From an uncultured Verrucomicrobiae bacterium (GTDB lineage Bacteria; Verrucomicrobiota; Verrucomicrobiia; Chthoniobacterales; JAATET01): a stretch of 64,000 nucleotides of DNA. Under the pieces are notes generated by a model that ran no database searches, was not told the origin of the DNA, and worked only from the letters and a program-made list of their open reading frames with translations. This document shows, piece after piece, positions 5,007 to 64,000 of the stretch (positions within the stretch are counted from its first letter, which is position 1; each line of letters opens with the position of its first letter). The DNA is taken from positions 7,113 to 71,112 of the forward strand of contig CAWHTR010000002.1 of assembly GCA_963832325.1 (NCBI GenBank), in the 5' to 3' direction. The position numbers and the translations under genes are program-made.

Positions 5007-5768
5007 ATGTCACCCGCAATCGCCACCGACAACCTCACCCGCGCTTTCGACGGCATGAACGCCGTGGACTCCCTCACGCTCTCCGTCGCACCCGGCACCT
5101 TCTACGGGTTCCTCGGCCCCAACGGCGCGGGCAAATCCACGACCATCAAAATGCTCACCGGCCTCCTCGCTCCCACCGCCGGCAGCATCTCCCTCCTCGG
5201 CCACGATCTCGCCGATCCGGTCGCCGCGCGCGCCGTCAAATCCCGCATCGGTGTCGTCCCGGAGAACCTCGCCCTCTTCGACAACCTCACCGGGAGCGAA
5301 TACCTCACCTTCGTCGGCCGCATGCACAAATTACCCAACGACACCATCCGCACCCGCCGCGAAGAACTCCTCGCCGTCATGCAACTCGACCACCAGCGGG
5401 GAAAGCTCACCGTCGAATACAGCCACGGCATGAAGAAAAAGCTCTCCCTCGCCGCCGCGCTCATCGCCCGTCCCGACCTCCTCTTCCTCGACGAACCCTT
5501 CGAAGGCGTCGACGCCGTTTCCGCCCGCATCCTCCGCGACATGCTCCGCCGCGCCTGCGCCCGCGGAGCCACCGTCTTCGTCACCTCCCACGTCCTCGAA
5601 ATCGTGGAAAAACTCTGCACCACCGTCGGCATCATCGCCCACGGCCAACTCGTCTATGAAGCCACGATGGAAACCATCGCTGCCACCGGATCCCTGGAAG
5701 ATCGATTCCTCCAAGCCGTTGGCACCGAGGACGCCGACCTCGGTCGCCTCTCCTGGCTCGACGAGTAA
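5007..5768 (+). CDS. ABC transporter ATP-binding protein
   Basis: Walker A GPNGAGKST and Walker B region LSLAAALIARPDLLFLDEP. ATG 5007 (MSPAIATDNLTRAF) is preferred over track start 4950. Confidence 0.9.
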   Translation: MSPAIATDNLTRAFDGMNAVDSLTLSVAPGTFYGFLGPNGAGKSTTIKMLTGLLAPTAGSISLLGHDLADPVAARAVKSRIGVVPENLALFDNLTGSEYLTFVGRMHKLPNDTIRTRREELLAVMQLDHQRGKLTVEYSHGMKKKLSLAAALIARPDLLFLDEPFEGVDAVSARILRDMLRRACARGATVFVTSHVLEIVEKLCTTVGIIAHGQLVYEATMETIAATGSLEDRFLQAVGTEDADLGRLSWLDE

Positions 5769-5881
5769 CGTCCACGGAATGTCGGAAATGGCCTGTCCGC
5801 ACCACCCTTCCCGTTTGTAGTCTCTGCAACCACTCTTACCTTCAGCTCAGGACCGTCTTCACCTCCCCCGCCGTCCCCACC

Positions 5882-7570
5882 ATGGACACCGCCCAATTCC
5901 GCACCATTCTCTGGCTCCGCTGGCGGTTGGCCGTCAACCAATGGACCCGCAACAGCGGCTTCGGAGCCGTCGTCGCCACCCTCCTCGGGGCCGGCGCCAC
6001 CCTCGCCGCCCTCTCGTCGCTCGCCACCGGCATCCTCGTCGGCTCCACCGCGCTCACCAAGGCCTCCCCCGACATGCTCCTGCTCGTCTGGGACGTCGTC
6101 GTCGCGGTGTTTCTCTTCTTTTGGGTCATCGGCATCGCCAGCGAACTCCAGCGCTCCGAGATCGTCGACCTCCCACGCCTCATGCACCTCCCGGTTTCCC
6201 TCCGCGAGGCTTTCCTCATCAACTACCTCGCCTCCCACGTTACCCTCAGCCTCATCATCGTCGCTCCCGCCATGGCCGGACTCGTCATCGGCCTCACCTT
6301 CGCCCGCGGCCCGCAATTCCCCCTCATCGCCTTCCCCGCCTTCGGTCTCCTCTTCGCCGTCACCGCCTGGACCTACTGCCTGCGCGGCTGGCTCTCCGCA
6401 CTCATGATCAATGCCCGCCGCAAACGCGCGATCATCGTCTGGGTCACCATCGGCGTCATGCTCGTCGCCCAGGCCCCGAACCTCTACTTCAACCTCGTCC
6501 GCGACACCGACGCCCCGGTCAGTTGGACCGGCGACGCCGCCCTCTCCGCGAACCTCGACACCGCGCACCGCTTACTCCCGCCGCTCTGGGTCGGGTTCTC
6601 CGCCCGCGCCCTCGCCAACGACGCCAACTGGCTGCCCGCCGTTCTCTCCGGCTGGGGCCTCTTTCTTCTCGCCGCCCTGGGATTCAACCAGGCCTATCGC
6701 TCCACGGTCCGCTTCTACGCCGGATCCAACGATGGCTCAAAAAAAACCACCCGCCGCCCCGCCGCCGATTCTTTCGCCTTCCTCGAGCGATCCATTCCGG
6801 GCGTGACCGACGACGTGGCCGCCGTCGCCACCAGCACCCTCCGCTGCATCGCCCGCTCCCCGGAGTTGAAGATGGCTCTCGGCAGCGCCGTCGCGATGGT
6901 CGTCGTCTTCGCCGTCCTCTTTCTCCATCCGGAATCCGACGTCCTCCCCAATTCCCTCCGCCCTTGGTCTCTCTTTGGCGGCATCACCCTCGCGCTCATG
7001 ATCGTCAACCAGCTCTACGCCAACCAATTCGGAGCCGATCGCGACGGCTTCCGCTCCTACGTCCTCGCTCCGATTTCGGGGCGAGATTTACTCCTCGGCA
7101 AAAACCTCGCGCTTCTCCCGGTGATCCTTTCGCTCATCACCATCCTTCTCAGCCTCCTGGCCACCGTCTGGGGGACCCCCATCAGCGCCTTGGTGGAAGC
7201 CCTCTTCCAAGGAGCTGCGGCCACCCTGCTCGTCCTCACCGCCGGCAACGCGACCTCCATCTTCCTTCCCTACCACATCGTCCCCGGCACCCTCAAACCC
7301 ACCAAGACCTCCCCCCAGGTCATGGTCGCCCTGGTCCTCTTCACCTTCATCCTTCCGATCCTCCTCCTCCCCGTCGCCGCGCCGCTCATTGCCGAGACCA
7401 TCCTGACGGTGGCCCTCGGCACACCCGCACCCTGGATCGGCCTCGTCGGTTCGCCCTTGATCCTCATCGCGACCGGCACCCTCTACACCCTCACCCTCCG
7501 ACCCCTCGGAGCTGCCCTGGAGGCTCGTCAACTCAAGATTCTCAACGCCGTCACCCACGCCGTCGAATAG
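5882..7570 (+). CDS. Polytopic membrane protein, putative ABC exporter permease partner
   Basis: 562-aa very hydrophobic ORF with many TM stretches, 114 nt downstream of the ATPase. Assigned by context. Confidence 0.65.
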   Translation: MDTAQFRTILWLRWRLAVNQWTRNSGFGAVVATLLGAGATLAALSSLATGILVGSTALTKASPDMLLLVWDVVVAVFLFFWVIGIASELQRSEIVDLPRLMHLPVSLREAFLINYLASHVTLSLIIVAPAMAGLVIGLTFARGPQFPLIAFPAFGLLFAVTAWTYCLRGWLSALMINARRKRAIIVWVTIGVMLVAQAPNLYFNLVRDTDAPVSWTGDAALSANLDTAHRLLPPLWVGFSARALANDANWLPAVLSGWGLFLLAALGFNQAYRSTVRFYAGSNDGSKKTTRRPAADSFAFLERSIPGVTDDVAAVATSTLRCIARSPELKMALGSAVAMVVVFAVLFLHPESDVLPNSLRPWSLFGGITLALMIVNQLYANQFGADRDGFRSYVLAPISGRDLLLGKNLALLPVILSLITILLSLLATVWGTPISALVEALFQGAAATLLVLTAGNATSIFLPYHIVPGTLKPTKTSPQVMVALVLFTFILPILLLPVAAPLIAETILTVALGTPAPWIGLVGSPLILIATGTLYTLTLRPLGAALEARQLKILNAVTHAVE

Positions 7571-10647: not shown

Positions 10648-11097
10648 TCAAAGTTCGATTCCAAAAAAATCCCGGAACACGTCCCGGTACACCCCGCGCT
10701 TCATCGGAGCCACCCACTCAAGGTCGAACTCTCCCGCTTCGATCCATCGCACCTCCCGAAACTCCGGCGTCTCGGGGTTTATTAAAATTCCCTGCCCAGC
10801 GCCGATCAACTCCGCCAGGAAATACGTCTGCTCCTGCCCCCCACAACCCTGCTTCGTCCGCCCCCCCCCGAACTCGTAACGATACGGTCCCTTCCGCTCC
10901 ACCACCCGGTAATCCTTCGCCGCCAGAGCGAGCTCTTCCCACACCTCCCGCTTCAACGCCGTCTCCGGCGATTCCCCCGCATCCACCCCTCCTTGTGGGA
11001 ATTGCCATGCCCCCGCCACGTCCAGCCGCTCCCCGATGAGCACCCGCCCATCCGCTCGCCGCAAAATCAACGCCACGTTCGGTCGATATCGAATCAT
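10648..11097 (-). CDS. rppH: RNA pyrophosphohydrolase (Nudix)
   Basis: MIRYRPNVALIL N-terminus and Nudix box GGVDAGESPETALKREVWEELAL. Confidence 0.85.
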   Translation of the reverse strand: MIRYRPNVALILRRADGRVLIGERLDVAGAWQFPQGGVDAGESPETALKREVWEELALAAKDYRVVERKGPYRYEFGGGRTKQGCGGQEQTYFLAELIGAGQGILINPETPEFREVRWIEAGEFDLEWVAPMKRGVYRDVFRDFFGIEL

Positions 11098-33567: not shown

Positions 33568-35649
33568 TTAGGGACCCCTCGGAGTCCCCCCGACGACGTC
33601 CACCTGAACGCGGTAGGTCGCCGGACTCCGCACGGGATAGAATCGCAACTGAACCTCGCGAATCGCCTCGGGCCGGAAGATCGGTCGGTCGGTCAGACGA
33701 CCGAACGCGTAAGGGTGAAAATCCGCGTAAGCCAGCAGCACCATTTCGGGATTCGAACGAACGGGATTGCGGCCCAGACCCTCCGCGACGCTGAATCGCT
33801 GCCCGTCCTCGTCGACCAAATCCAGCCGGATCCCCCCCGGCGGCGAATCTTCCCCGAGATACCGCAGCCTCAAGAAGCCATTCTCCAAAAGCGGCAATCC
33901 GTCCACCCGGGTGACCGCCATCGGCGGCAGCCGTGGATCGCTCGACTCCCCGTCGACAACGAATTCCGACGTTCGGCTCAGCGATCCCTCTCGCGACTCC
34001 TCACCCCCCACCGGCCGCGAATCCTCCGCCGCCCCCACCCGATTCATCACCAGCCACGGGCCGACCCCGAGCACGTCTTCCGGCGGCTCGGGTGCCCAGA
34101 TCCATTCAAATCGATCCGGGTCCGGACGGCTCCCCACCAAGCTCGTCGCGTTCCCCACTGTTGTTCGATTCGGCACCGTCTCGAACCCGACGGTCGCCAC
34201 GGATTCCCGCAAACCCGCCCCCGGCACCGCCGGAGTGAAGCGGGCCGTGACCCGCTCCCGCACGTAGCCCCCCGACGAAACCCCGATCTCGACCGGAATC
34301 TCCACCCGCGAAAACGCCCCGACCCGCAGCATCTGACCCCACCCGCCCGTTACCCGCAAGCCACCACCCTCGCCCTCGCCATTCGTCCCTCGTCCCTCGC
34401 CCGCCCTGACCTCCAACCTCCCGACGACCGGTCTCGCGGAGAAATTATACACCCACCAGCTGCCCCGGATCGGCTCGGGATCAGCGGCGATTCCGCGAAA
34501 CCAATACGTCCCACTCACCTTGTGCGGAATGCACGTCGAATTATCCGGCAGCCACTGCACGACGATCCGATTCGGCTCCGCCGGCCGGGCCACCGCCGTT
34601 TTCCTCCGCAACGGATTCTCGCGGGTGAAATCCGCGTAGGCCGTCCAGGCCGGATACGGCTCGCCCGAGTCCCGGATCAGCGACCAAAACGGATTGGTTC
34701 GCCACGCCATCACGAATGGCATGAAGACCGCCACATCCTCCTCCAGCGCCGTCCGGGCCGTTTCCACCGTGAAGGCCCGCTGGATCTCGCGTCCCCGTGC
34801 CTCTTCGAAGTCGTCGAAGGGCACCGCGTTGATCCCGCACTCCGTGACCCAGACCGGCAGTGTTCGATCCGGAGTCCAGGATTCGGCAAACTCCCGGTGC
34901 GCCCGGATCGCGCCCCCCAGATCGCGGGCATGACCGTAAAAATGGACGTTGAGAGCATCCGTGTAGTCGAAGAGTCCGTTCGCCGCCGCCCGATCCAACC
35001 ACGGACCCGGAAAATTCCCGAGCGCCCCCATCAGGACGGCTGGCTGTCGATCCCGGCGTCCAGCCGTCCCGTCCCGCAAACCGAGATAAATCGCCTTCGA
35101 ATACGCCGCGAATCGATCCGGCAGGTCCTTGACGTAATGCACGTCCGGTTCGTTGGGCAGTTCCCAAGCCGCGACCAGCCCACCCGTTTGCCGCCCCAAT
35201 TCCCGCGCCGCGTCGTAAACGGTCAGCAGATCCTCCCGCAGCTGATTCCCGGGGATCTCAGCCACCGGACGCCCCGGCAACGTCGCGAACGCCACCGCCT
35301 CGAATCCCCGCTCCCGCAGGTCCGCGTAAACCCCGAACTCCCCGGAACGCCAAATCTCCGGGTCCCGCGAGTCCCCGTGGTTGCGTTCGCGCAGATAGCG
35401 GACCGGCGTCTCCTCGAGAAGTTGCAAAAAAGTCGGCCGCTGCTCGGGCCGCAGGTGCCGGGCAACGATAGCGTCCAGCCCCCAGCCGGAGCTGAGTGTT
35501 CGGAGATCAGACGTCGAGTGCCGAGAGTCGAGGGTCGCGTGATCGACAAGAAATACCGAGACGCCAAATCCCACCGTGAGCGCGAGACCCACCAGCACGG
35601 TCAAGCCCGCAGCCAGCCTTCCGATCAACTGTTCGCCGTTAGCTTTCAA
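33568..35649 (-). CDS. Membrane-anchored glycoside hydrolase-like protein (clan GH-A TIM barrel)
   Basis: TTG start. N-terminal TM helix. WELPNEPD (acid/base NEP) and LPVWVTECG (nucleophile Glu) motifs. Large C-terminal beta-rich region. Confidence 0.7.
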   Translation of the reverse strand: MKANGEQLIGRLAAGLTVLVGLALTVGFGVSVFLVDHATLDSRHSTSDLRTLSSGWGLDAIVARHLRPEQRPTFLQLLEETPVRYLRERNHGDSRDPEIWRSGEFGVYADLRERGFEAVAFATLPGRPVAEIPGNQLREDLLTVYDAARELGRQTGGLVAAWELPNEPDVHYVKDLPDRFAAYSKAIYLGLRDGTAGRRDRQPAVLMGALGNFPGPWLDRAAANGLFDYTDALNVHFYGHARDLGGAIRAHREFAESWTPDRTLPVWVTECGINAVPFDDFEEARGREIQRAFTVETARTALEEDVAVFMPFVMAWRTNPFWSLIRDSGEPYPAWTAYADFTRENPLRRKTAVARPAEPNRIVVQWLPDNSTCIPHKVSGTYWFRGIAADPEPIRGSWWVYNFSARPVVGRLEVRAGEGRGTNGEGEGGGLRVTGGWGQMLRVGAFSRVEIPVEIGVSSGGYVRERVTARFTPAVPGAGLRESVATVGFETVPNRTTVGNATSLVGSRPDPDRFEWIWAPEPPEDVLGVGPWLVMNRVGAAEDSRPVGGEESREGSLSRTSEFVVDGESSDPRLPPMAVTRVDGLPLLENGFLRLRYLGEDSPPGGIRLDLVDEDGQRFSVAEGLGRNPVRSNPEMVLLAYADFHPYAFGRLTDRPIFRPEAIREVQLRFYPVRSPATYRVQVDVVGGTPRGP

Positions 35650-40744: not shown

Positions 40745-41000
40745 CGCGTTGCCTTGCAGGCTGTCTCGCAAGCTCGGCTCGCGCGAGTCCCTGTATTGGT
40801 GCTTTTATCCAGCAGAGGCGCTGAGACGCGGAGGGCTGAAATTCAGTTATTGGTTATTGGGAGCAGCTGATCTGTCGATTTAGCGCTCCTGGCGTGAAAC
40901 CCATCACCATCTTCATTCTCTGCGCCTCTGCGCCTCTGCGCGAGCCCCGCATCGGTATTCCTCATCCCCACAACCCGCTACCCGTTACCCGCTCCCGCCA
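40745..41000. repeat. Mosaic hairpin-repeat block B
   Basis: Module CGCGTTGCCTTGCAGGCTGTCTCGCAAGCTCGG, loop GAGTCCCTGTATTGGTGC, reverse core 40812-40835, variable segment type a, forward core CTCTGCGCCTCTGCGCCTCTGCGCGAG 40918-40944, then a GGGTAGCGGGT-type tail. Confidence 0.85.
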
Positions 41001-41027: not shown

Positions 41028-41432
41028 TCAGGGACATTCAAGCGGAAGTCGGCATCCGAAGCTTAGAAAATCCCGCTTGTTCAGCGTCAGGATCTGTTCA
41101 GCGCCCGCTTTTTCCGCAGCAGCCGCGTGAAGGAAATCGTGCACCAAGCCACCTCGCACGCCCGATTCCTGACAAACAGACAAGGCCGCAAGAGTGTCCT
41201 CCCCGTCCAATTCGACCAGTGCGACGGAACCCGTCAATTCGCGGATCATTCGGAACGCATCGTCCGGCTGGCACCGAAACCCCAGCCGACCACCGGTGAG
41301 AGTCGAAAACACCTCCGCCAGCGAATGCGGCCTCGTCCAACCGCCAGCTGCCTCCAGTCGATCCCTCACTCCATCCGACTGCAAGGCTTCCACCAGCGCC
41401 GAGGCATCCCAATAGAGTCGACTACCTCGCAT
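41028..41432 (-). CDS. PIN-domain toxin (cassette 2)
   Basis: 134 aa. LYWDASALVEAL N-terminus and ...GGLVHDFLHAAAAEKAGAEQILTLNKRDF C-terminus, PIN-like. Confidence 0.8.
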   Translation of the reverse strand: MRGSRLYWDASALVEALQSDGVRDRLEAAGGWTRPHSLAEVFSTLTGGRLGFRCQPDDAFRMIRELTGSVALVELDGEDTLAALSVCQESGVRGGLVHDFLHAAAAEKAGAEQILTLNKRDFLSFGCRLPLECP

Positions 41433-41711: not shown

Positions 41712-42089
41712 CGGTGTCGAGAGACGAGGGTCGAGCAACGAGTGGCGAGAGTGGAACTCCGTAACCTAAAAACTTAGAAACCTAAAAACCCAGAAACTTG
41801 GAACCCCAAGACCTCCGAAGCTCCCGACATGGCCTTTATAGTGCCCCCCCTCTGCGCCTCTGCGCGAGTTCCTGTATTAATACTGATGCTTTTATCCCGC
41901 AGAGGCGCTGAGGCGCGGAGATCCTGAAATACAGGTGATAGTTATTAGGTATTGGGAGCAGCTGATCTGTAGACCTGCCGCTCTTCGCTCGAGGGCCGCG
42001 TGAAATCCATCACCATTTTTATCCTCTGCGCCTCTGCGCCTCTGCGCGAGTCCCTGTATTGATACTTTTCCCCGCAGAGGCGCAGAGGG
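41712..42089. repeat. Mosaic hairpin-repeat block C
   Basis: AACCTAAAAAC-type module (41763-41805, also present at 44649-44688), forward core 41850-68, reverse core 41899-920, segment type a, and a complete hairpin unit 42024-42089 (15-16 bp stem, ~30-nt loop) ending 10 nt from the vapC3 stop. Confidence 0.85.
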
Positions 42090-44898: not shown

Positions 44899-45456
44899 TC
44901 AGAGACTTCCGGCAATTTTGCGCAGCCGGGCCACGATTTCCGGCGCTTCTTTCAATTCGGCGAGTGGCGTCAATTCCTCGAAGACCAGATTCCAGTCGAT
45001 CGACTTCTGGCGTCGCATGATCCCATCGACATCCAGCCAATCGCGGTCACGCGAAGCGAAAGCCTTGTGCACCAGAAGATCTTCCGCAGAACAAGTTAAT
45101 ACCCCGCGGCCAGCTTCAAGCCTCCACTTCGTCGCGCGAGAGATCGCACGTTCTTCAAACGGCATCGCACCCAAGGCAATATCAATGGGAACCCCCGATT
45201 CGTCGGAAACGAGCAAAACCCGGTTCGCGAGAGCGAAGTCCCTGGCATTTCCAATCCGGGGCCGGTAGCGGCCCAGCAGGCGATCCACAAATTGCTCCTC
45301 CTCGCCGAACCCGGTCAGCAGGGTAATGTCGATATCCTGGGTAAAACGTGGCTCCCCCCAGCGCTGCACCGCCAGCCCACCGATCACGCAATAAAGGAAC
45401 CCTGCCTCGTCGAGATATCGCCCAAGGGCTTGAGCGCTCTCCAGCAATGGAGTCAT
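44899..45456 (-). CDS. Minimal nucleotidyltransferase-fold protein (AbiEii/MNT-like)
   Basis: The GGLAVQRWGEPRFTQDIDITLL motif (GG..A....T.DID) is the NTase fold signature. 185 aa. Confidence 0.7.
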   Translation of the reverse strand: MTPLLESAQALGRYLDEAGFLYCVIGGLAVQRWGEPRFTQDIDITLLTGFGEEEQFVDRLLGRYRPRIGNARDFALANRVLLVSDESGVPIDIALGAMPFEERAISRATKWRLEAGRGVLTCSAEDLLVHKAFASRDRDWLDVDGIMRRQKSIDWNLVFEELTPLAELKEAPEIVARLRKIAGSL

Positions 45457-45807: not shown

Positions 45808-46890
45808 AAGTTGACTCCCGCGTTGATTTCGGGCTTGCCCAGCCCGTCACCACCCACTCTGCGCCCCTGCGCGAGTTCCTGGATTGATACTTTTCTCCCG
45901 CAGAGGCGCGAAGGCGCGGAGATCCTGAAATACAGGTGATCGTTTTTGGTTATTGGGAGCAGCTGATTTGTAGGTTTAGCGCTCTTTGCGTGAAACCCAT
46001 CCGCATTTGTATCAATCTCTGCGCCTCTGCGCCTCCGCGCGAGTTCCCGCATTGGTATTACGAATTACCTTCTTGAGCTTCTGCGCATGTTGACTCGGTC
46101 GTTCCCCGTTGCCGATTTCGCTCCCGCTCAACAGCCCTGCGGGCCACCTATCGGTGGGCGATGTCGCTCGACTCCCGTCGGCTCCAATCTCTGCGCCTCT
46201 GCGCCTTTGATTCCCTCGCGACCCGGCTCGGTCACCCTTCGGGCTTATCGTCTACTTTCGGCTCCCCCGAGCCTTCGGTTGCGCGAGCCCCTGTATTGAT
46301 ACTTTTATCCCGCAGAGGCGCTGAGGCGCTGAGGGAATTCTTTTAAAAATTCGTTTCGGTTATTCGGAATGCGCTTCAAATAACCTGAATGCGCTCTTCA
46401 TCATTCTCATTTGTATCAATCTCTGCGTCTCTGCGCCTCCGCGCGAGTCCCTGTATTTATGCTGCGGATTACCTTCTCGAGCTTCTTGCGCATGTTGACT
46501 CGGTCGTTCCCCGTTGCCGATTTCGCTCCCGCTCAACAGCCCTGCGGGCCACCTATCGGTGGGCTATGTCGCTCGACTCCCGTCGGCTCCATTCTCTGCG
46601 CCTCTGCGCCTTTGATTCCCTCGCGACCCGGCTCGGTCACCCTTCGGGCTTATCGTCTACTTTCGGCTCCCCCGAGCCTTCGGTTGCGCGAGTCCCTGTA
46701 TTGATACTTTTATCCCGCAGAGGCGCTGAGACGCGGAGAGGATTCTTTCGAAGATTCACCTTCCTTAGATTCCGTCCGCTTTTGTTCTTCAACTTTTCCT
46801 CATTCGCATTTGTATCAACCTCCGCGCCTCTGCGTCTCCGCGCGAGTCCCGCATTGGTATTCGAATTCCCTATTTAGCTTCTTGCGCCAT
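45808..46890. repeat. Gene-free 1.1-kb mosaic repeat tract G with ~400-bp periodicity
   Basis: Forward cores at 45857, 46027, 46189, 46421, 46594 and 46819. Reverse cores at 45900, 46312 and 46718. Two ~272-bp copies (46068-46337 and 46468-46743) differ at about 8 positions. Confidence 0.9.
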
Positions 46891-48240: not shown

Positions 48241-48735
48241 CTATTCCCCGGCAGCGCGGGAAAGCGCATCGATCAATCCGCTGCGCAAATGATAGCCTTC
48301 CGCTTGCAGGGCCAGCAATAATGGACGGACCGCTGGGATCAAACCCCGCGACTTCGCACGAACAAGCACCCCACCCGTTCCAATCATCGGGAGATGATAC
48401 ACTTCGTGCGCCAACCGCCTTCCTTTGCGCTCATCGATGAGCAGACGAGCGTGGGGCATCTGTAGAGCCAGCGCAATGATGCTCGCTTCACCAAAATCCA
48501 GCACCGTCCCCAGCCAGACATCCGGCAAAGGAGGATCTTCTACGACTTGAATCCACGGGTGAGCGTGAATCGCGTCGCTCACCGGCTTGTCTGTCGATTC
48601 GCTGACCTCACGAAATACGGCATCCGTAGTGATGGTGGCACCGTAAAGTTCGCGCAGTAGTCCCAGCCGACCGATCAGGCTAAGCGCGATGATCGGCCCC
48701 GCATCTGCGATCACGCACTCCCTGGCACCGATCAT
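48241..48735 (-). CDS. DUF3368 PIN-like nucleic-acid-binding protein (putative toxin)
   Basis: VIADAGPIIALSLIGRLGLLRELYG is the typical DUF3368 N-terminus. Paired with a UPF0175 gene. Confidence 0.8.
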   Translation of the reverse strand: MIGARECVIADAGPIIALSLIGRLGLLRELYGATITTDAVFREVSESTDKPVSDAIHAHPWIQVVEDPPLPDVWLGTVLDFGEASIIALALQMPHARLLIDERKGRRLAHEVYHLPMIGTGGVLVRAKSRGLIPAVRPLLLALQAEGYHLRSGLIDALSRAAGE

Positions 48736-49059: not shown

Positions 49060-49462
49060 TCCAGTCCCCCTCACAGACTCGCTACAAGCCACCAGCCACT
49101 CAACACTCGCCACTGGTTATTGGCTATTGGTTATTGGTTGATAGTTGTTGGTTGATAGTTGTTGGTTATTGGAGCCCCTCGATAGACTCGTTGATGCCAT
49201 TCCCTTCTGGATCCGGCACCCCTTCCGGGCTGGCCCGACTGACGGACCAGTCTATCTCGATCGGCCACCACCGATCTCGATTCGCTCCCGCTCATGTCGC
49301 CCTGCGGGCCGTCGCTTTGCTCCAGTCTGCCCCGAGCCGTCCCACGGCTCCGGTGCTCTCGACTCTGGACACTTGACTTCCCAACTCTGCGTCTCTGCGC
49401 CTCTGCGCGAGCTCGCATTGGTATACCGAATTACTTTTTGAGCCTTTTGCGCCTGTTTGCGG
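49060..49462. repeat. Repeat block I
   Basis: CCCCTCACAGACTCGC (49067-82, identical 16-mer inside the epimerase CDS at 47715-30), GGTTATTGG microsatellite, TTCGCTCCCGCTCA..GCCCTGCGGGC module, and forward core 49385-49411. Confidence 0.8.
49115..49172. repeat. Short tandem repeat (GGTTATTGG / TTGATAGTTGTTGG units)
   Basis: Reads GGTTATTGG CTATTGG TTATTGG TTGATAGTTGTTGG TTGATAGTTGTTGG TTATTGG. Confidence 0.85.
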
Positions 49463-62119: not shown

Positions 62120-62950
62120 CTAATCTACTAAAGGAACATATCTCATTACCTCGTGCTTCCGGTATGCGATTGTACCGATGAGAAGTTCGCCTTTTGCGCC
62201 CCAGGATTTCCACCACTTACGGGCGAAGTCCACGAGGGGGGAAGGTTTCCCGCTTCCAAGATTCCGAATCACGGGGGTCTCAAGAACGAATGAGCTTCTT
62301 GCCACTTCTAGGAAAGTTTCCGCCACGTCTGATACATAAATAAAGTCTCGAACTTGGGCCCCTTCAGTCATGTTAAAGTCGTGACCAGACATTGCCGCGG
62401 CCCGAAGAGATGGCCAAAACCTTTTCTCATTTTCGCCTTCACCGAAAACGTGAAAGGGGCGGAGAATCTTGAGAGAAAGCTCTCTTTCATAAGCCAGCGC
62501 CAAGGCTGCCATTGATGCAGCGGCCTTCGATGCATGATAGCCACCTGTCGGCTCAAGTGGTGCATCTGTCGGGATGAACTCGTATCGCTCACCACTCTTG
62601 CCATACTCGAAACAGGAGCCGCAGATCACAAAATTTCTAATACCTGCATCTGCCGCTTGAATCCACAGACGCAGGCTTTGCGAAACGTTTACTTCAAAGC
62701 ACTCATCCCAGGATGCTTTGAGATCAACTCCGGTTGCCGCTAAATGGACGAGGACATCGCAATCGGAAAAGTCCAAGGCCGAAACCTGTCCCATGGTTTT
62801 ATTGATCCACTCCGGTTCTTTTATTAGTGGAATTCGTGGCCGTGAATTAGACGAGCGACGGAGCGCAACCACGTGATGCCCCGCTGAAAGCGCTGCATTC
62901 AAAAAGTGCGAACCGATGAACCCGGTCCCTCCGGTGACGAAAAGTTTCAT
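62120..62950 (-). CDS. NAD-dependent epimerase/dehydratase (SDR)
   Basis: ATG 62950 (MKLFVTGGTGFIGSHF) and a YxxxK region (YHASKAA). The track ORF extension to 63025 reads through repeat sequence. Confidence 0.85.
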   Translation of the reverse strand: MKLFVTGGTGFIGSHFLNAALSAGHHVVALRRSSNSRPRIPLIKEPEWINKTMGQVSALDFSDCDVLVHLAATGVDLKASWDECFEVNVSQSLRLWIQAADAGIRNFVICGSCFEYGKSGERYEFIPTDAPLEPTGGYHASKAAASMAALALAYERELSLKILRPFHVFGEGENEKRFWPSLRAAAMSGHDFNMTEGAQVRDFIYVSDVAETFLEVARSSFVLETPVIRNLGSGKPSPLVDFARKWWKSWGAKGELLIGTIAYRKHEVMRYVPLVD

Positions 62951-62975
62951 TTTGGATTCACGAGCAGGTTCTCGC

Positions 62976-63129
62976 GCCGAGACGCGGAGGGAGGAACGTA
63001 TAGTGAAGGATGAAATCTGAAACACTAAGCGGGAAAGAAGCGGCGACAGCAGAAGTAAGTTTCACCCAGCGTCTTTGCGCCTCCGCGCGAGCCTCACCCT
63101 CTCCCCGCGCCTCTGCGTCTCAGCGCGAG
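62976..63129. repeat. Repeat block K between the epimerase and the rfbH-like gene
   Basis: Reverse-core-like GCCGAGACGCGGAGGG (62976-92) and forward cores at 63071-91 and 63103-29 (..GCGCCTCTGCGTCTCAGCGCGAG). Confidence 0.75.
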
Positions 63130-63131
63130 AA

Positions 63132-64000
63132 TCAGAAACTCTTCACAAAACTCTTAATTATCTCAATTTCATACTCCAGCATCGCGGGGGTGAGCCCCGG
63201 ATACGTGCCAAGGAAGATCGCGGAATTCATGATCTCATCCGCGCCAGGGAAAAGCTCGGCGAGCTTTTCCGTTGTGAGTTCTTGGTTGCTGGTTGCCGAA
63301 AGGCCATGCAGCCGGAAAGCGTCAGGGCGGTCTTTACGGAGTTGAACGAACGCGGGTTGCCGAAGCAAGTTGCCGCCGAAGAGCATGCGGTTCCCGATCT
63401 TTTTCTCGTCGAGGTGCCTCCCGAGATCTGTGTGGGAGAATGGCGCAGTTGGCCGGACGCGGATCATAAAGCCGAACCAGCTGGGATCGACGTGGCAATG
63501 GGAAGAGTCCCATTGGAAGGTTGATGGTTGATGGTTGATGGTTGATGGTTGTTCCGAAGGCTCCAGATGCCCTGAACGATCAACGCTCCGCCAGGCGCTG
63601 GCGTGCGTCGGAAGGTTGAACTCGAAGACATCGTTCAGATCCGCGAGGCCGCGGCGGAGGATTTCCCAGTTCTGCTTGCGCGCTTCGATGAAGGCGGGGA
63701 GCTTTTTGAGTTGCTGCCGACCGATGGCCGCCTGGGGATCGAGGGGCTTCAAGTTATAGCCGAGGTGGCTGTAGGTGTATTTGTGGTCGTAGCCGGGTGG
63801 CAGCTCGCCGAGGTTCCAGCCGAAGCGCTTCCCGCAGGTATTATCCACGCCGCTGGGGCACCAGCAATCCCGGCCCCAGTCGCGGAAGCTCTCGGCGTAG
63901 GTCTTGAGCCCCGGTCGGCGGATGATGCTCACCGCGCCGCCCTCGCCCATCGTAAGGTGATGGGGCGGGTAGAATGATTGGGTGCTGAGGTCTCCCCACG
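63132..64000 (-). CDS. rfbH: RfbH/DdhC-like PLP-dependent sugar dehydratase/aminotransferase (DegT family), C-terminal part; runs off the right edge
   Basis: The frame stays open to base 64000: ...GDLSTQSFYPPHHLTMGEGGAV...ESFRDWGRDCWCPSGVDNTCGKRFG...YDHKYTYSHLGYNLKPLD...DPSWFGF...GNRMLFGGNLLRQPAF. Confidence 0.88.
   Translation of the reverse strand, partial: WGDLSTQSFYPPHHLTMGEGGAVSIIRRPGLKTYAESFRDWGRDCWCPSGVDNTCGKRFGWNLGELPPGYDHKYTYSHLGYNLKPLDPQAAIGRQQLKKLPAFIEARKQNWEILRRGLADLNDVFEFNLPTHASAWRSVDRSGHLEPSEQPSTINHQPSTFQWDSSHCHVDPSWFGFMIRVRPTAPFSHTDLGRHLDEKKIGNRMLFGGNLLRQPAFVQLRKDRPDAFRLHGLSATSNQELTTEKLAELFPGADEIMNSAIFLGTYPGLTPAMLEYEIEIIKSFVKSF
63519..63553. repeat. Heptanucleotide tandem repeat (GGTTGAT)x4 plus one imperfect unit, inside the rfbH-like CDS
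   Basis: Four perfect GGTTGAT units at 63519-63546, then GGTTGTT. Encodes ...QPSTINHQPST... on the minus strand. Confidence 0.9.

Follow-up and report, generated by a model that had tools for sequence, protein, structure and literature searches.

The question raised by the last kilobase of a 64,000-nucleotide stretch of DNA from an uncultured Verrucomicrobiae bacterium (contig CAWHTR010000002.1; this whole stretch is called the window below) is how a tandem repeat with a unit of seven nucleotides came to lie in frame within the conserved enzyme gene rfbH/ddhC. The original prediction held that a repeat-family element, behaving like the Rickettsia palindromic elements (RPEs), had apparently been inserted in frame in the enzyme. 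Sequence comparison and structure modelling were used to follow up this claim; the source genome was covered by the 64-kb window and rfbH by its 3' part, and the DNA of relatives came from genomes in GTDB, from metagenomes and from records found by exact matches to their proteins. The locus is probably a heptanucleotide simple sequence repeat (SSR) that is tolerated in a beta-hairpin loop of RfbH and kept by slippage. It would have been inherited and not newly inserted, because relatives carry the array at the same spot.

Judged by its sequence, the product of the host gene is a CDP-6-deoxy-D-xylo-4-hexulose-3-dehydrase (E1) of the RfbH/DdhC type. The NCBIfam model NF011936 matches the fragment with E=2.4e-96 and 323 bits over profile positions 211-437; this score stays below the 423-bit cut-off because the window holds only the C-terminal 288 residues. 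A HMMER search of the PDB returned the Yersinia pseudotuberculosis E1 structures 3BCX (E=6e-62) and 3BB8 (E about 1e-61 for the pair), and 3BCX was also the top fold match of an AlphaFold2 (AF2) model of the fragment. The C-x-C-x7-C motif (DWGRDCWCPSGVDNTC) and the segment SFYPPHHLT align with E1 residues of 3BCX. We take the cysteines of DWGRDCWCPSGVDNTC to be the iron-sulfur motif of E1 and the two histidines of SFYPPHHLT to include the active-site His that replaces the aminotransferase Lys, and both features are common to the Yersinia protein and the verrucomicrobial proteins. The latter differ from it by a clade-specific FxWDxxGCxxD extension and by up to three variable loops with repeat-derived segments. 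Two of these loops, referred to as site 1 and site 2, are present in the fragment (Table 1).

The repeat lies in site 1. Tandem Repeats Finder (TRF) reported (GGTTGAT)x4.7 at 63519-63551 with period 7, 100% matches and a score of 66, in accordance with the perfect 7-bp repeat first noted there, and a degenerate fifth unit, GGTTGTT, is found at 63547-63553. With an SSR of this class defined as at least three head-to-tail 7-nt units of high identity, the array is a heptanucleotide SSR. It is read on the minus strand in frame with the enzyme, encodes QPSTINHQPST and directly adjoins a conserved Phe codon (63516-63518). The peptide quoted in the original prediction agrees with the translation, and the reading frame is intact over 289 codons, array included. 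The prediction was also right in that repeat-type DNA, and not ordinary coding sequence, encodes this loop, whose limits are two conserved residues, the W of LPTHAxxW and the F of FxWD. The estimate of some 35 extra residues was right in comparison with Yersinia E1, which lacks about 36 residues at site 1 and 22 at site 2, but the truly variable loop comprises only 24 residues. About 15 of the apparent extra residues belong to the segment F-x-W-D-x-x-G-C-x-x-D before SWFGF, which is conserved in all verrucomicrobial homologues. In the AF2 model, strands 133-136 and 161-163 flank the loop, which forms the tip of their beta-hairpin and has low confidence values (pLDDT 54-61). The model is poor in the first approximately 92 residues, because the N-terminal half of the protein is missing, and was used solely for local secondary structure and pLDDT near the loop. 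Site 1 would be a permissive, probably disordered loop of the RfbH C-terminal domain, and it may be exposed at the protein surface.

Comparison with relatives showed that the array is not peculiar to this genome. Close homologues of the fragment are found in Opitutaceae and other Verrucomicrobiota, with a best BLASTP identity of 72%. A protein-pattern scan of genome contigs reached 70% identity at most, and the one exact match to proteins encoded near rfbH was a 3-kb Logan contig that points away from this gene; run ERR12040027 contains a contig whose encoded protein is identical to one from the window. Ten loci (the window, L021, L083, L084, L085, L087, L088, L089, L091 and L095) contain four heptamers of the form NTCAACY, or CTCGACY, directly before the conserved TTY (Phe) codon and in identical register, and the proteins of the nine loci other than the window are 63-77% identical. 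Related sequence of similar length at this position in close homologues from unrelated taxa had been named beforehand as the finding that would speak against a new insertion, and this is largely what was found. The sequence of the unit depends on the lineage. While the window has ATCAACC, the units are ATCAACC and CTCAACC in L084, L088 and L091, CTCAACC and CTCAACT in L083, and xTCAACT in L021, L087 and L089; the unit of L095 is CTCGACT, in which the same A to G change has occurred in concert in all four units. A unit variant is common to all four units within a lineage and different between lineages, and the amino-acid differences of the loop (S/P, L/P, and N to D together with Q to R) are single-nucleotide changes of the unit read in different frames. 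This homogenisation of variants in each lineage indicates concerted evolution, of a DNA repeat and not of a peptide. Array-bearing lineages are scattered in a neighbour-joining tree.

The phase in which the array changes was also analyzed. In eight of the ten loci, the TCAAC core showed no variation at its six third codon positions, and over the 30 codons beyond it 27 of 30 such positions varied; this test of heptamer phase against codon phase is significant but biased, as most loci were picked for containing TCAAC. The bias is partly corrected by L095; the peptide was the ground for selecting this locus, and its core has changed in concert, as predicted. Between L084 and L088, the array differs at one of 28 positions and the flanks differ by 17%. 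Raised mutation in the array could not be detected between the near-identical loci L088 and L091, where one of three differences fell into the array, which is not significant. An exact search of metagenome contigs for copy-number variants of the window allele returned no match. Loop lengths at site 1 were obtained from 121 homologues and cluster at 4-5 and 12-13 residues, with the baseline loop of 4-5 residues, without the array, present in 57 of them. Differences at site 1 between some relatives within a clade amount to exactly seven residues, corresponding to 21 nt or three units, as seen for MKPSTLDSRPSA versus QKPST and for KAGSGERGAGSQ versus KAGNQ. The longer site 1 loops of other relatives are made of unrelated heptamers (GCTGAAA, AGCAAGG, GCAGAAA, CCGCCAT and others). 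Gain, loss and homogenisation of units, the behaviour looked for in an SSR, are seen in the lineage-specific units, in the 7-residue steps and in a 21-nt super-unit that is present five times in L094. Heptamers, followed by octamers, also predominate among the tandem repeats of this genome and its relatives. When arrays of at least three copies were counted with TRF in 470 kb of related verrucomicrobial DNA, 31 had period 7 and 19 had period 8, and at most three had any other period.

We propose that the array did not arise by insertion in this genome, but that a four-unit array occupies a fixed position and register in scattered verrucomicrobial lineages. In each lineage, unit variants would spread through the whole array by replication slippage or unequal exchange, and selection on the enzyme would filter the outcome in three ways. 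The total length would have to remain a multiple of three, so that the surviving changes would be 21-nt (7-residue) steps. The units would have to be free of stop codons in all three frames, which would admit only units of the ATCAACC/AACAACC type in this orientation. Neither ATCAACC nor AACAACC contains a stop codon in any frame, whereas the commoner intergenic variant GGTTATT, with AATAACC as its complement, gives TAA and the plus orientation gives TGA. Finally, the site would have to tolerate an excursion rich in P, S, T, Q and N, the peptide itself being presumably neutral.

Several observations weigh against this explanation. The most similar homologues (81%: P0025, P0026, P0030, P0038 and P0052) have loops of 4-5 residues without the array, and the array must therefore have been lost repeatedly, or alleles have recombined. 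All ten loci have the same number of units, four, whereas an array free to slip would be expected to vary. Lineages with flanks that differ by 17-35% have kept the core TCAAC, together with its non-preferred codons TCA and CAA; this conservation could reflect a function at the DNA level or re-seeding, although it is due in part to ascertainment bias. No origin was found for the 37 nt of the loop outside the array, and the coverage of the source genome is limited to 64 kb.

The mobile-element explanation, in which an intergenic mosaic element resembling an RPE or a miniature inverted-repeat transposable element (MITE) was transposed or copied in frame into rfbH, is quite unlikely. It draws on observations that were borne out: GGTT(A/G)TT heptamers recur in intergenic blocks at about 40846, 41935, 43940, 45938 and 49114, and the units GGTTGAT and GGTTGTT are common to the rfbH loop and to one intergenic array of the window (49114-49172). 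The latter is the sole other array of the GGTTGAT unit family in the window, shares GGTTGAT and (A/G)GTTGTT, and aligns with the rfbH array over 29-32 nt (88-90% identity); two consecutive units are matched eight times, with 0.45 expected. The patchy distribution of array-bearing lineages, a module shared by two loops of one rfbH in the relative L082, the recurrence of the unit AACCAAG at three places within 7 kb and at least two open reading frames (ORFs) of L002, and the resemblance of neighbouring loop arrays of different heptamers to intergenic mosaics would also fit a mobile module. Real RPE-like behaviour is found among the relatives, in L082, and was not seen in the window. When the rfbH insert was compared with five intergenic modules by BLAST and MAFFT, the alignment stopped at the heptamers, and no full-length copy of the loop was found elsewhere in the window, where the heptamer tract alone matches (49129-49167) and the flanks give chance matches of 9-13 nt. 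A lineage-specific insertion at the site, as expected of an RPE or MITE, is not what the relatives show, since nine other divergent loci have the array in the same position and register.

The structural hallmarks of a mobile element were likewise not found. No hairpin stability was detected in 63510-63595, the DNA fold giving z = +0.92 and +0.40 against shuffles on the two strands. The hairpin that had been counted as part of the insert lies one base away from its predicted position, in conserved codons, and was dropped as a candidate; it is at chance level, as hairpins of its kind are common in the window, which contains 47 perfect 7-bp stems (about 28 in shuffles). The 10-mer GAGCCTTCGG, proposed as a marker of the repeat family, was also rejected. 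It has three matches with 0.3 expected, but two of these are copies in one 405-bp tandem duplication and the remaining one is found on the other strand; moreover, this 10-mer had been selected post hoc. Neither terminal inverted repeats nor a target-site duplication were noticed at the loop. A 10-nt direct repeat, GGAAGGTTGA, does bracket it (63515-63524 and 63610-63619, 95 nt apart) but was rejected as a target-site duplication and attributed to chance, because 95 nt is not a multiple of three, both copies are in conserved codons, and excision would delete LPTHAxxW. RPEs are elements of approximately 150 bp that encode a conserved peptide and are found in frame at positions tolerated by the protein fold (PMC10969869). 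The rfbH array resembles RPEs and intragenic MITEs in being repeat-family DNA in frame inside a housekeeping or metabolic gene. RPEs are palindromic and occur at different sites in unrelated genes, whereas the rfbH array is a 33-nt tract of a 7-nt unit with a variable peptide, has no detectable ends and occupies the same site in many orthologues.

A phase-variation switch, in which the gain or loss of one or two units would frameshift rfbH, turn off 3,6-dideoxyhexose synthesis and alter the O-antigen, for example to escape phages, is highly improbable. The unit does not span a whole number of codons, the tract is perfect, the host gene belongs to lipopolysaccharide (LPS) and O-antigen synthesis, and intragenic heptanucleotide SSRs, including an AACAACC tract within an ORF, have been proposed as mediators of phase variation in Haemophilus influenzae (PMC2651432). 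The rfbH array is thus like the contingency loci of this organism (tetra- and heptanucleotide tracts in LPS genes) in being a perfect non-triplet SSR inside an LPS-related ORF. It differs from them in its short length of about 4.7 units and in its location in the middle-to-3' part, approximately 70% into the gene, and not close to its 5' end (compare PMC3315296). Each of the ten array loci has exactly four units and keeps the frame, relatives differ by in-frame 21-nt steps, and no frameshifted allele at site 1 was found among about 55 genome loci and 121 proteins. Selection for the array itself, either as a DNA or RNA motif, (GTTGA)4 or (UCAAC)4, that is bound by a factor or as a P/S/T-rich peptide that serves as a functional linker, is very unlikely. 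It would explain why the TCAAC core is invariant at synonymous sites while 90% of the neighbouring third positions vary, why the array of L084 and L088 has diverged less than its flanks, and why the count stays at four. The choice of most loci for their TCAAC biases this picture, however, and other lineages have concerted core changes (TCGAC, or TCAAG-type peptides such as LKSQVSN), decayed arrays or, in 57 of 121 homologues, none, while the peptide varies freely (I/L/F, S/P/H, P/L). It is unlikely, too, that the heptamer arrays of Verrucomicrobiota form a genome-wide, actively propagated or homogenised system, comparable to the cyanobacterial short tandemly repeated repetitive (STRR) sequences, which repeatedly writes genome-typical units into permissive loops of O-antigen enzymes (three sites in RfbH, RfbG-like and RmlC-like proteins) and in which the rfbH array would be conserved as a functional or self-maintaining DNA or RNA element and not for its peptide. 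The probability of an assembly or sequencing artefact is practically negligible: tandem repeats are prone to mis-assembly, and the contigs of two relatives break at or close to arrays of this kind (L092, and L082 with a run of N), but the tract of 33 nt is below read length, the frame is kept over 289 codons, and independent assemblies have the same structure. Slippage within an inherited SSR remains the preferred explanation.

Table 1. Features of the rfbH locus and related heptamer repeats in the window.
Feature	Position	Strand	Description
rfbH/ddhC, 3' part	63132..64000	-	288 codons and stop codon (63132-63134); gene continues past the window end
Heptanucleotide array	63519..63553	-	coding strand AACAACC (ATCAACC)x4; plus strand (GGTTGAT)x4 then GGTTGTT
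Hypervariable loop, site 1	63519..63590	-	24 residues, fragment residues 137-160, RSVDRSGHLEPSEQPSTINHQPST
Non-array part of site 1 loop	63554..63590	-	RSVDRSGHLEPSE; lineage-specific; contains the GAGCCTTCGG 10-mer; weak residual period-7 signal
Site 2 segment	63246..63311	-	residues 230-251, LHGLSATSNQELTTEKLAELFP, including GGTTGCTGGTTGCC at 63284-63297
Palindrome, 7-bp stem and 4-nt loop	63497..63514		AATGGGA-AGAG-TCCCATT; in conserved codons Q-W-D-S-S-H (F-Q-W-D-S-S-H-C)
Degenerate intergenic heptamer array	49114..49172	+	GGTTATT / GGTTGAT / AGTTGTT, about 8 units
Short GGTTATT module in intergenic mosaic block	40846..40860	+	2-3 units; others near 41935, 43940, 45938

The second length excess that had been noticed in the enzyme, site 2, exists in comparison with Yersinia and has a weak period-7 signal in its DNA (0.42, shuffle p=0.003). 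Most relatives have 6 residues at this site instead of 22, but several other clades are of equal length, with weakly similar sequence. Because the same 22-residue length is present in these clades, site 2 looks like an older, decayed or exchanged (or inherited) module and not like a fresh insertion. Other rfbH genes provide further examples of repeat-derived loops. In L082 (P0031), a module of approximately 70 nt (GGAGCAGTTGTTRAATGAT...CAACCGGCAACC) is found in two loops of the gene (L082:10312-10385 and 10866-10950), and it has therefore been copied between sites within the family. The 21-nt super-unit of L094, which consists of three heptamers, is located in the N-terminal variable loop of rfbH (L094:4137-4245) and encodes ELRASSL five times; this gene appears to be 5'-truncated. 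In L093, rfbH is split into two called ORFs by an in-frame TAG where the insert starts (L093:3970-3980). Directly after the rfbH stop codon of L004, a remnant of a second rfbH 3' end (...AAVRLVGGNRVTLITVTDATISAAFPGADKL...) was detected at L004:3900-4173, which suggests past recombination or cassette replacement at this locus.

In-frame heptamer arrays were also found in loops of RfbG-like and RmlC-like genes of relatives. Two RfbG-like NAD-dependent dehydratases have different arrays in the same loop, TCAACTT at L004:1799-1825 and AGCTCTC at L094:714-745, which encode NPQLSAFNSQL and SSSQLSAFSSQL, respectively. The AACCAAG unit of L002 (and its rotations) is located at 446-477, 5766-5798 and 6712-6741, and a perfect (AGATCCC)x8.9 array is found at L002:5188-5249 in the N-terminal part of an RmlC-like ORF, beside a run of N. 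L090 has an in-frame (TGTCAAC/TTTCAAC) array in an ORF (L090:400-430). An AT-rich contig, L086, matched by the heptamer pattern search that also found L090, is full of (TGTCAAC)n arrays resembling cyanobacterial STRR repeats. Within the window, heptamer-type DNA (GAGGGAC units; GCGGGTAACGGG) encodes the G/E-rich loop GEGRGTNGEGEGGGLRVTGGWG of a glycosyl-hydrolase-like protein at 34340-34410, in a minus-strand ORF of 693 amino acids (33568-35649). The DNA of this loop resembles intergenic arrays at 41716, 44810 and 49900, and homologues vary in loop length; a protein identical to the ORF product (P0121) is encoded on a 329-kb NCBI/ENA contig. Between 40700 and 50000, small genes of toxin-antitoxin type (PIN, 41028-41432; AbiEii, 44899-45456; DUF3368, 48241-48735) alternate with mosaic repeat blocks, in which inverted (CTCTGCGC)n/(GCGCAGAG)n arms surround GAGTCCCTGTATTGATACTTTT and are accompanied by heptamer and octamer arrays. 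This layout looks cassette-like, and the region includes the 405-bp tandem duplication (46004-46748). As in the mosaic blocks, 8-mer modules of the (CTCTGCGC) type are present at 62955-63131, in the intergenic spacer that separates the rfbH stop codon from the neighbouring gene for an NAD-dependent epimerase (62123-62950).

Heptanucleotides are the most abundant class of long-unit SSRs in many bacteria, mostly intergenic and often with approximately four units, according to two reports (PMC4692102; PMC4679880, citing Mrazek 2007). A minority of long-unit SSRs is located inside ORFs, in the stop-free orientation (PMC4692102, PMC4679880). The rfbH array is like the known examples, such as the cyanobacterial STRR, the GGGNATC repeats of Xanthomonas and Nostoc and the TAACTGA repeats of Beggiatoaceae, in its 7-nt unit and its approximately four units, and the genomes may be alike in having many dispersed arrays with genome-typical units, period 7 being dominant here too. 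In contrast to them, the array is located in the middle of a gene for a conserved enzyme, has stayed at the same codon position of the orthologues and in the same register while lineages diverged, and shows concerted unit change. It is also not G-rich, so that the G-quadruplex rationale does not apply. A literature search for heptanucleotide repeats with Verrucomicrobia or STRR found no paper. What is new here is that a non-triplet SSR inside the gene of a conserved enzyme has been retained in orthologues and evolves in concert; no earlier description of such repeats was found in Verrucomicrobiota.

In many large bacterial genomes, no long-unit SSR is more common than the heptanucleotide repeats, yet they are usually treated as intergenic, and their origin, spread and function are essentially unexplained. 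The rfbH locus provides a natural experiment, in which one array, fixed to one position in the codons of a conserved enzyme, can be followed through many lineages and its evolution can be read against the coding frame. The changes of the array follow the heptamer phase and not the codon phase, and its length moves in 21-nt steps. This makes rfbH a tractable system for measuring how intragenic non-triplet repeats slip and become homogenised, for asking whether such repeats seed new protein loops, and for testing whether the O-antigen genes of environmental Verrucomicrobiota use repeats for variation. For genome annotation, the finding is a warning that low-complexity insertions of P, S, T and Q in verrucomicrobial proteins are often repeat DNA read in three frames.

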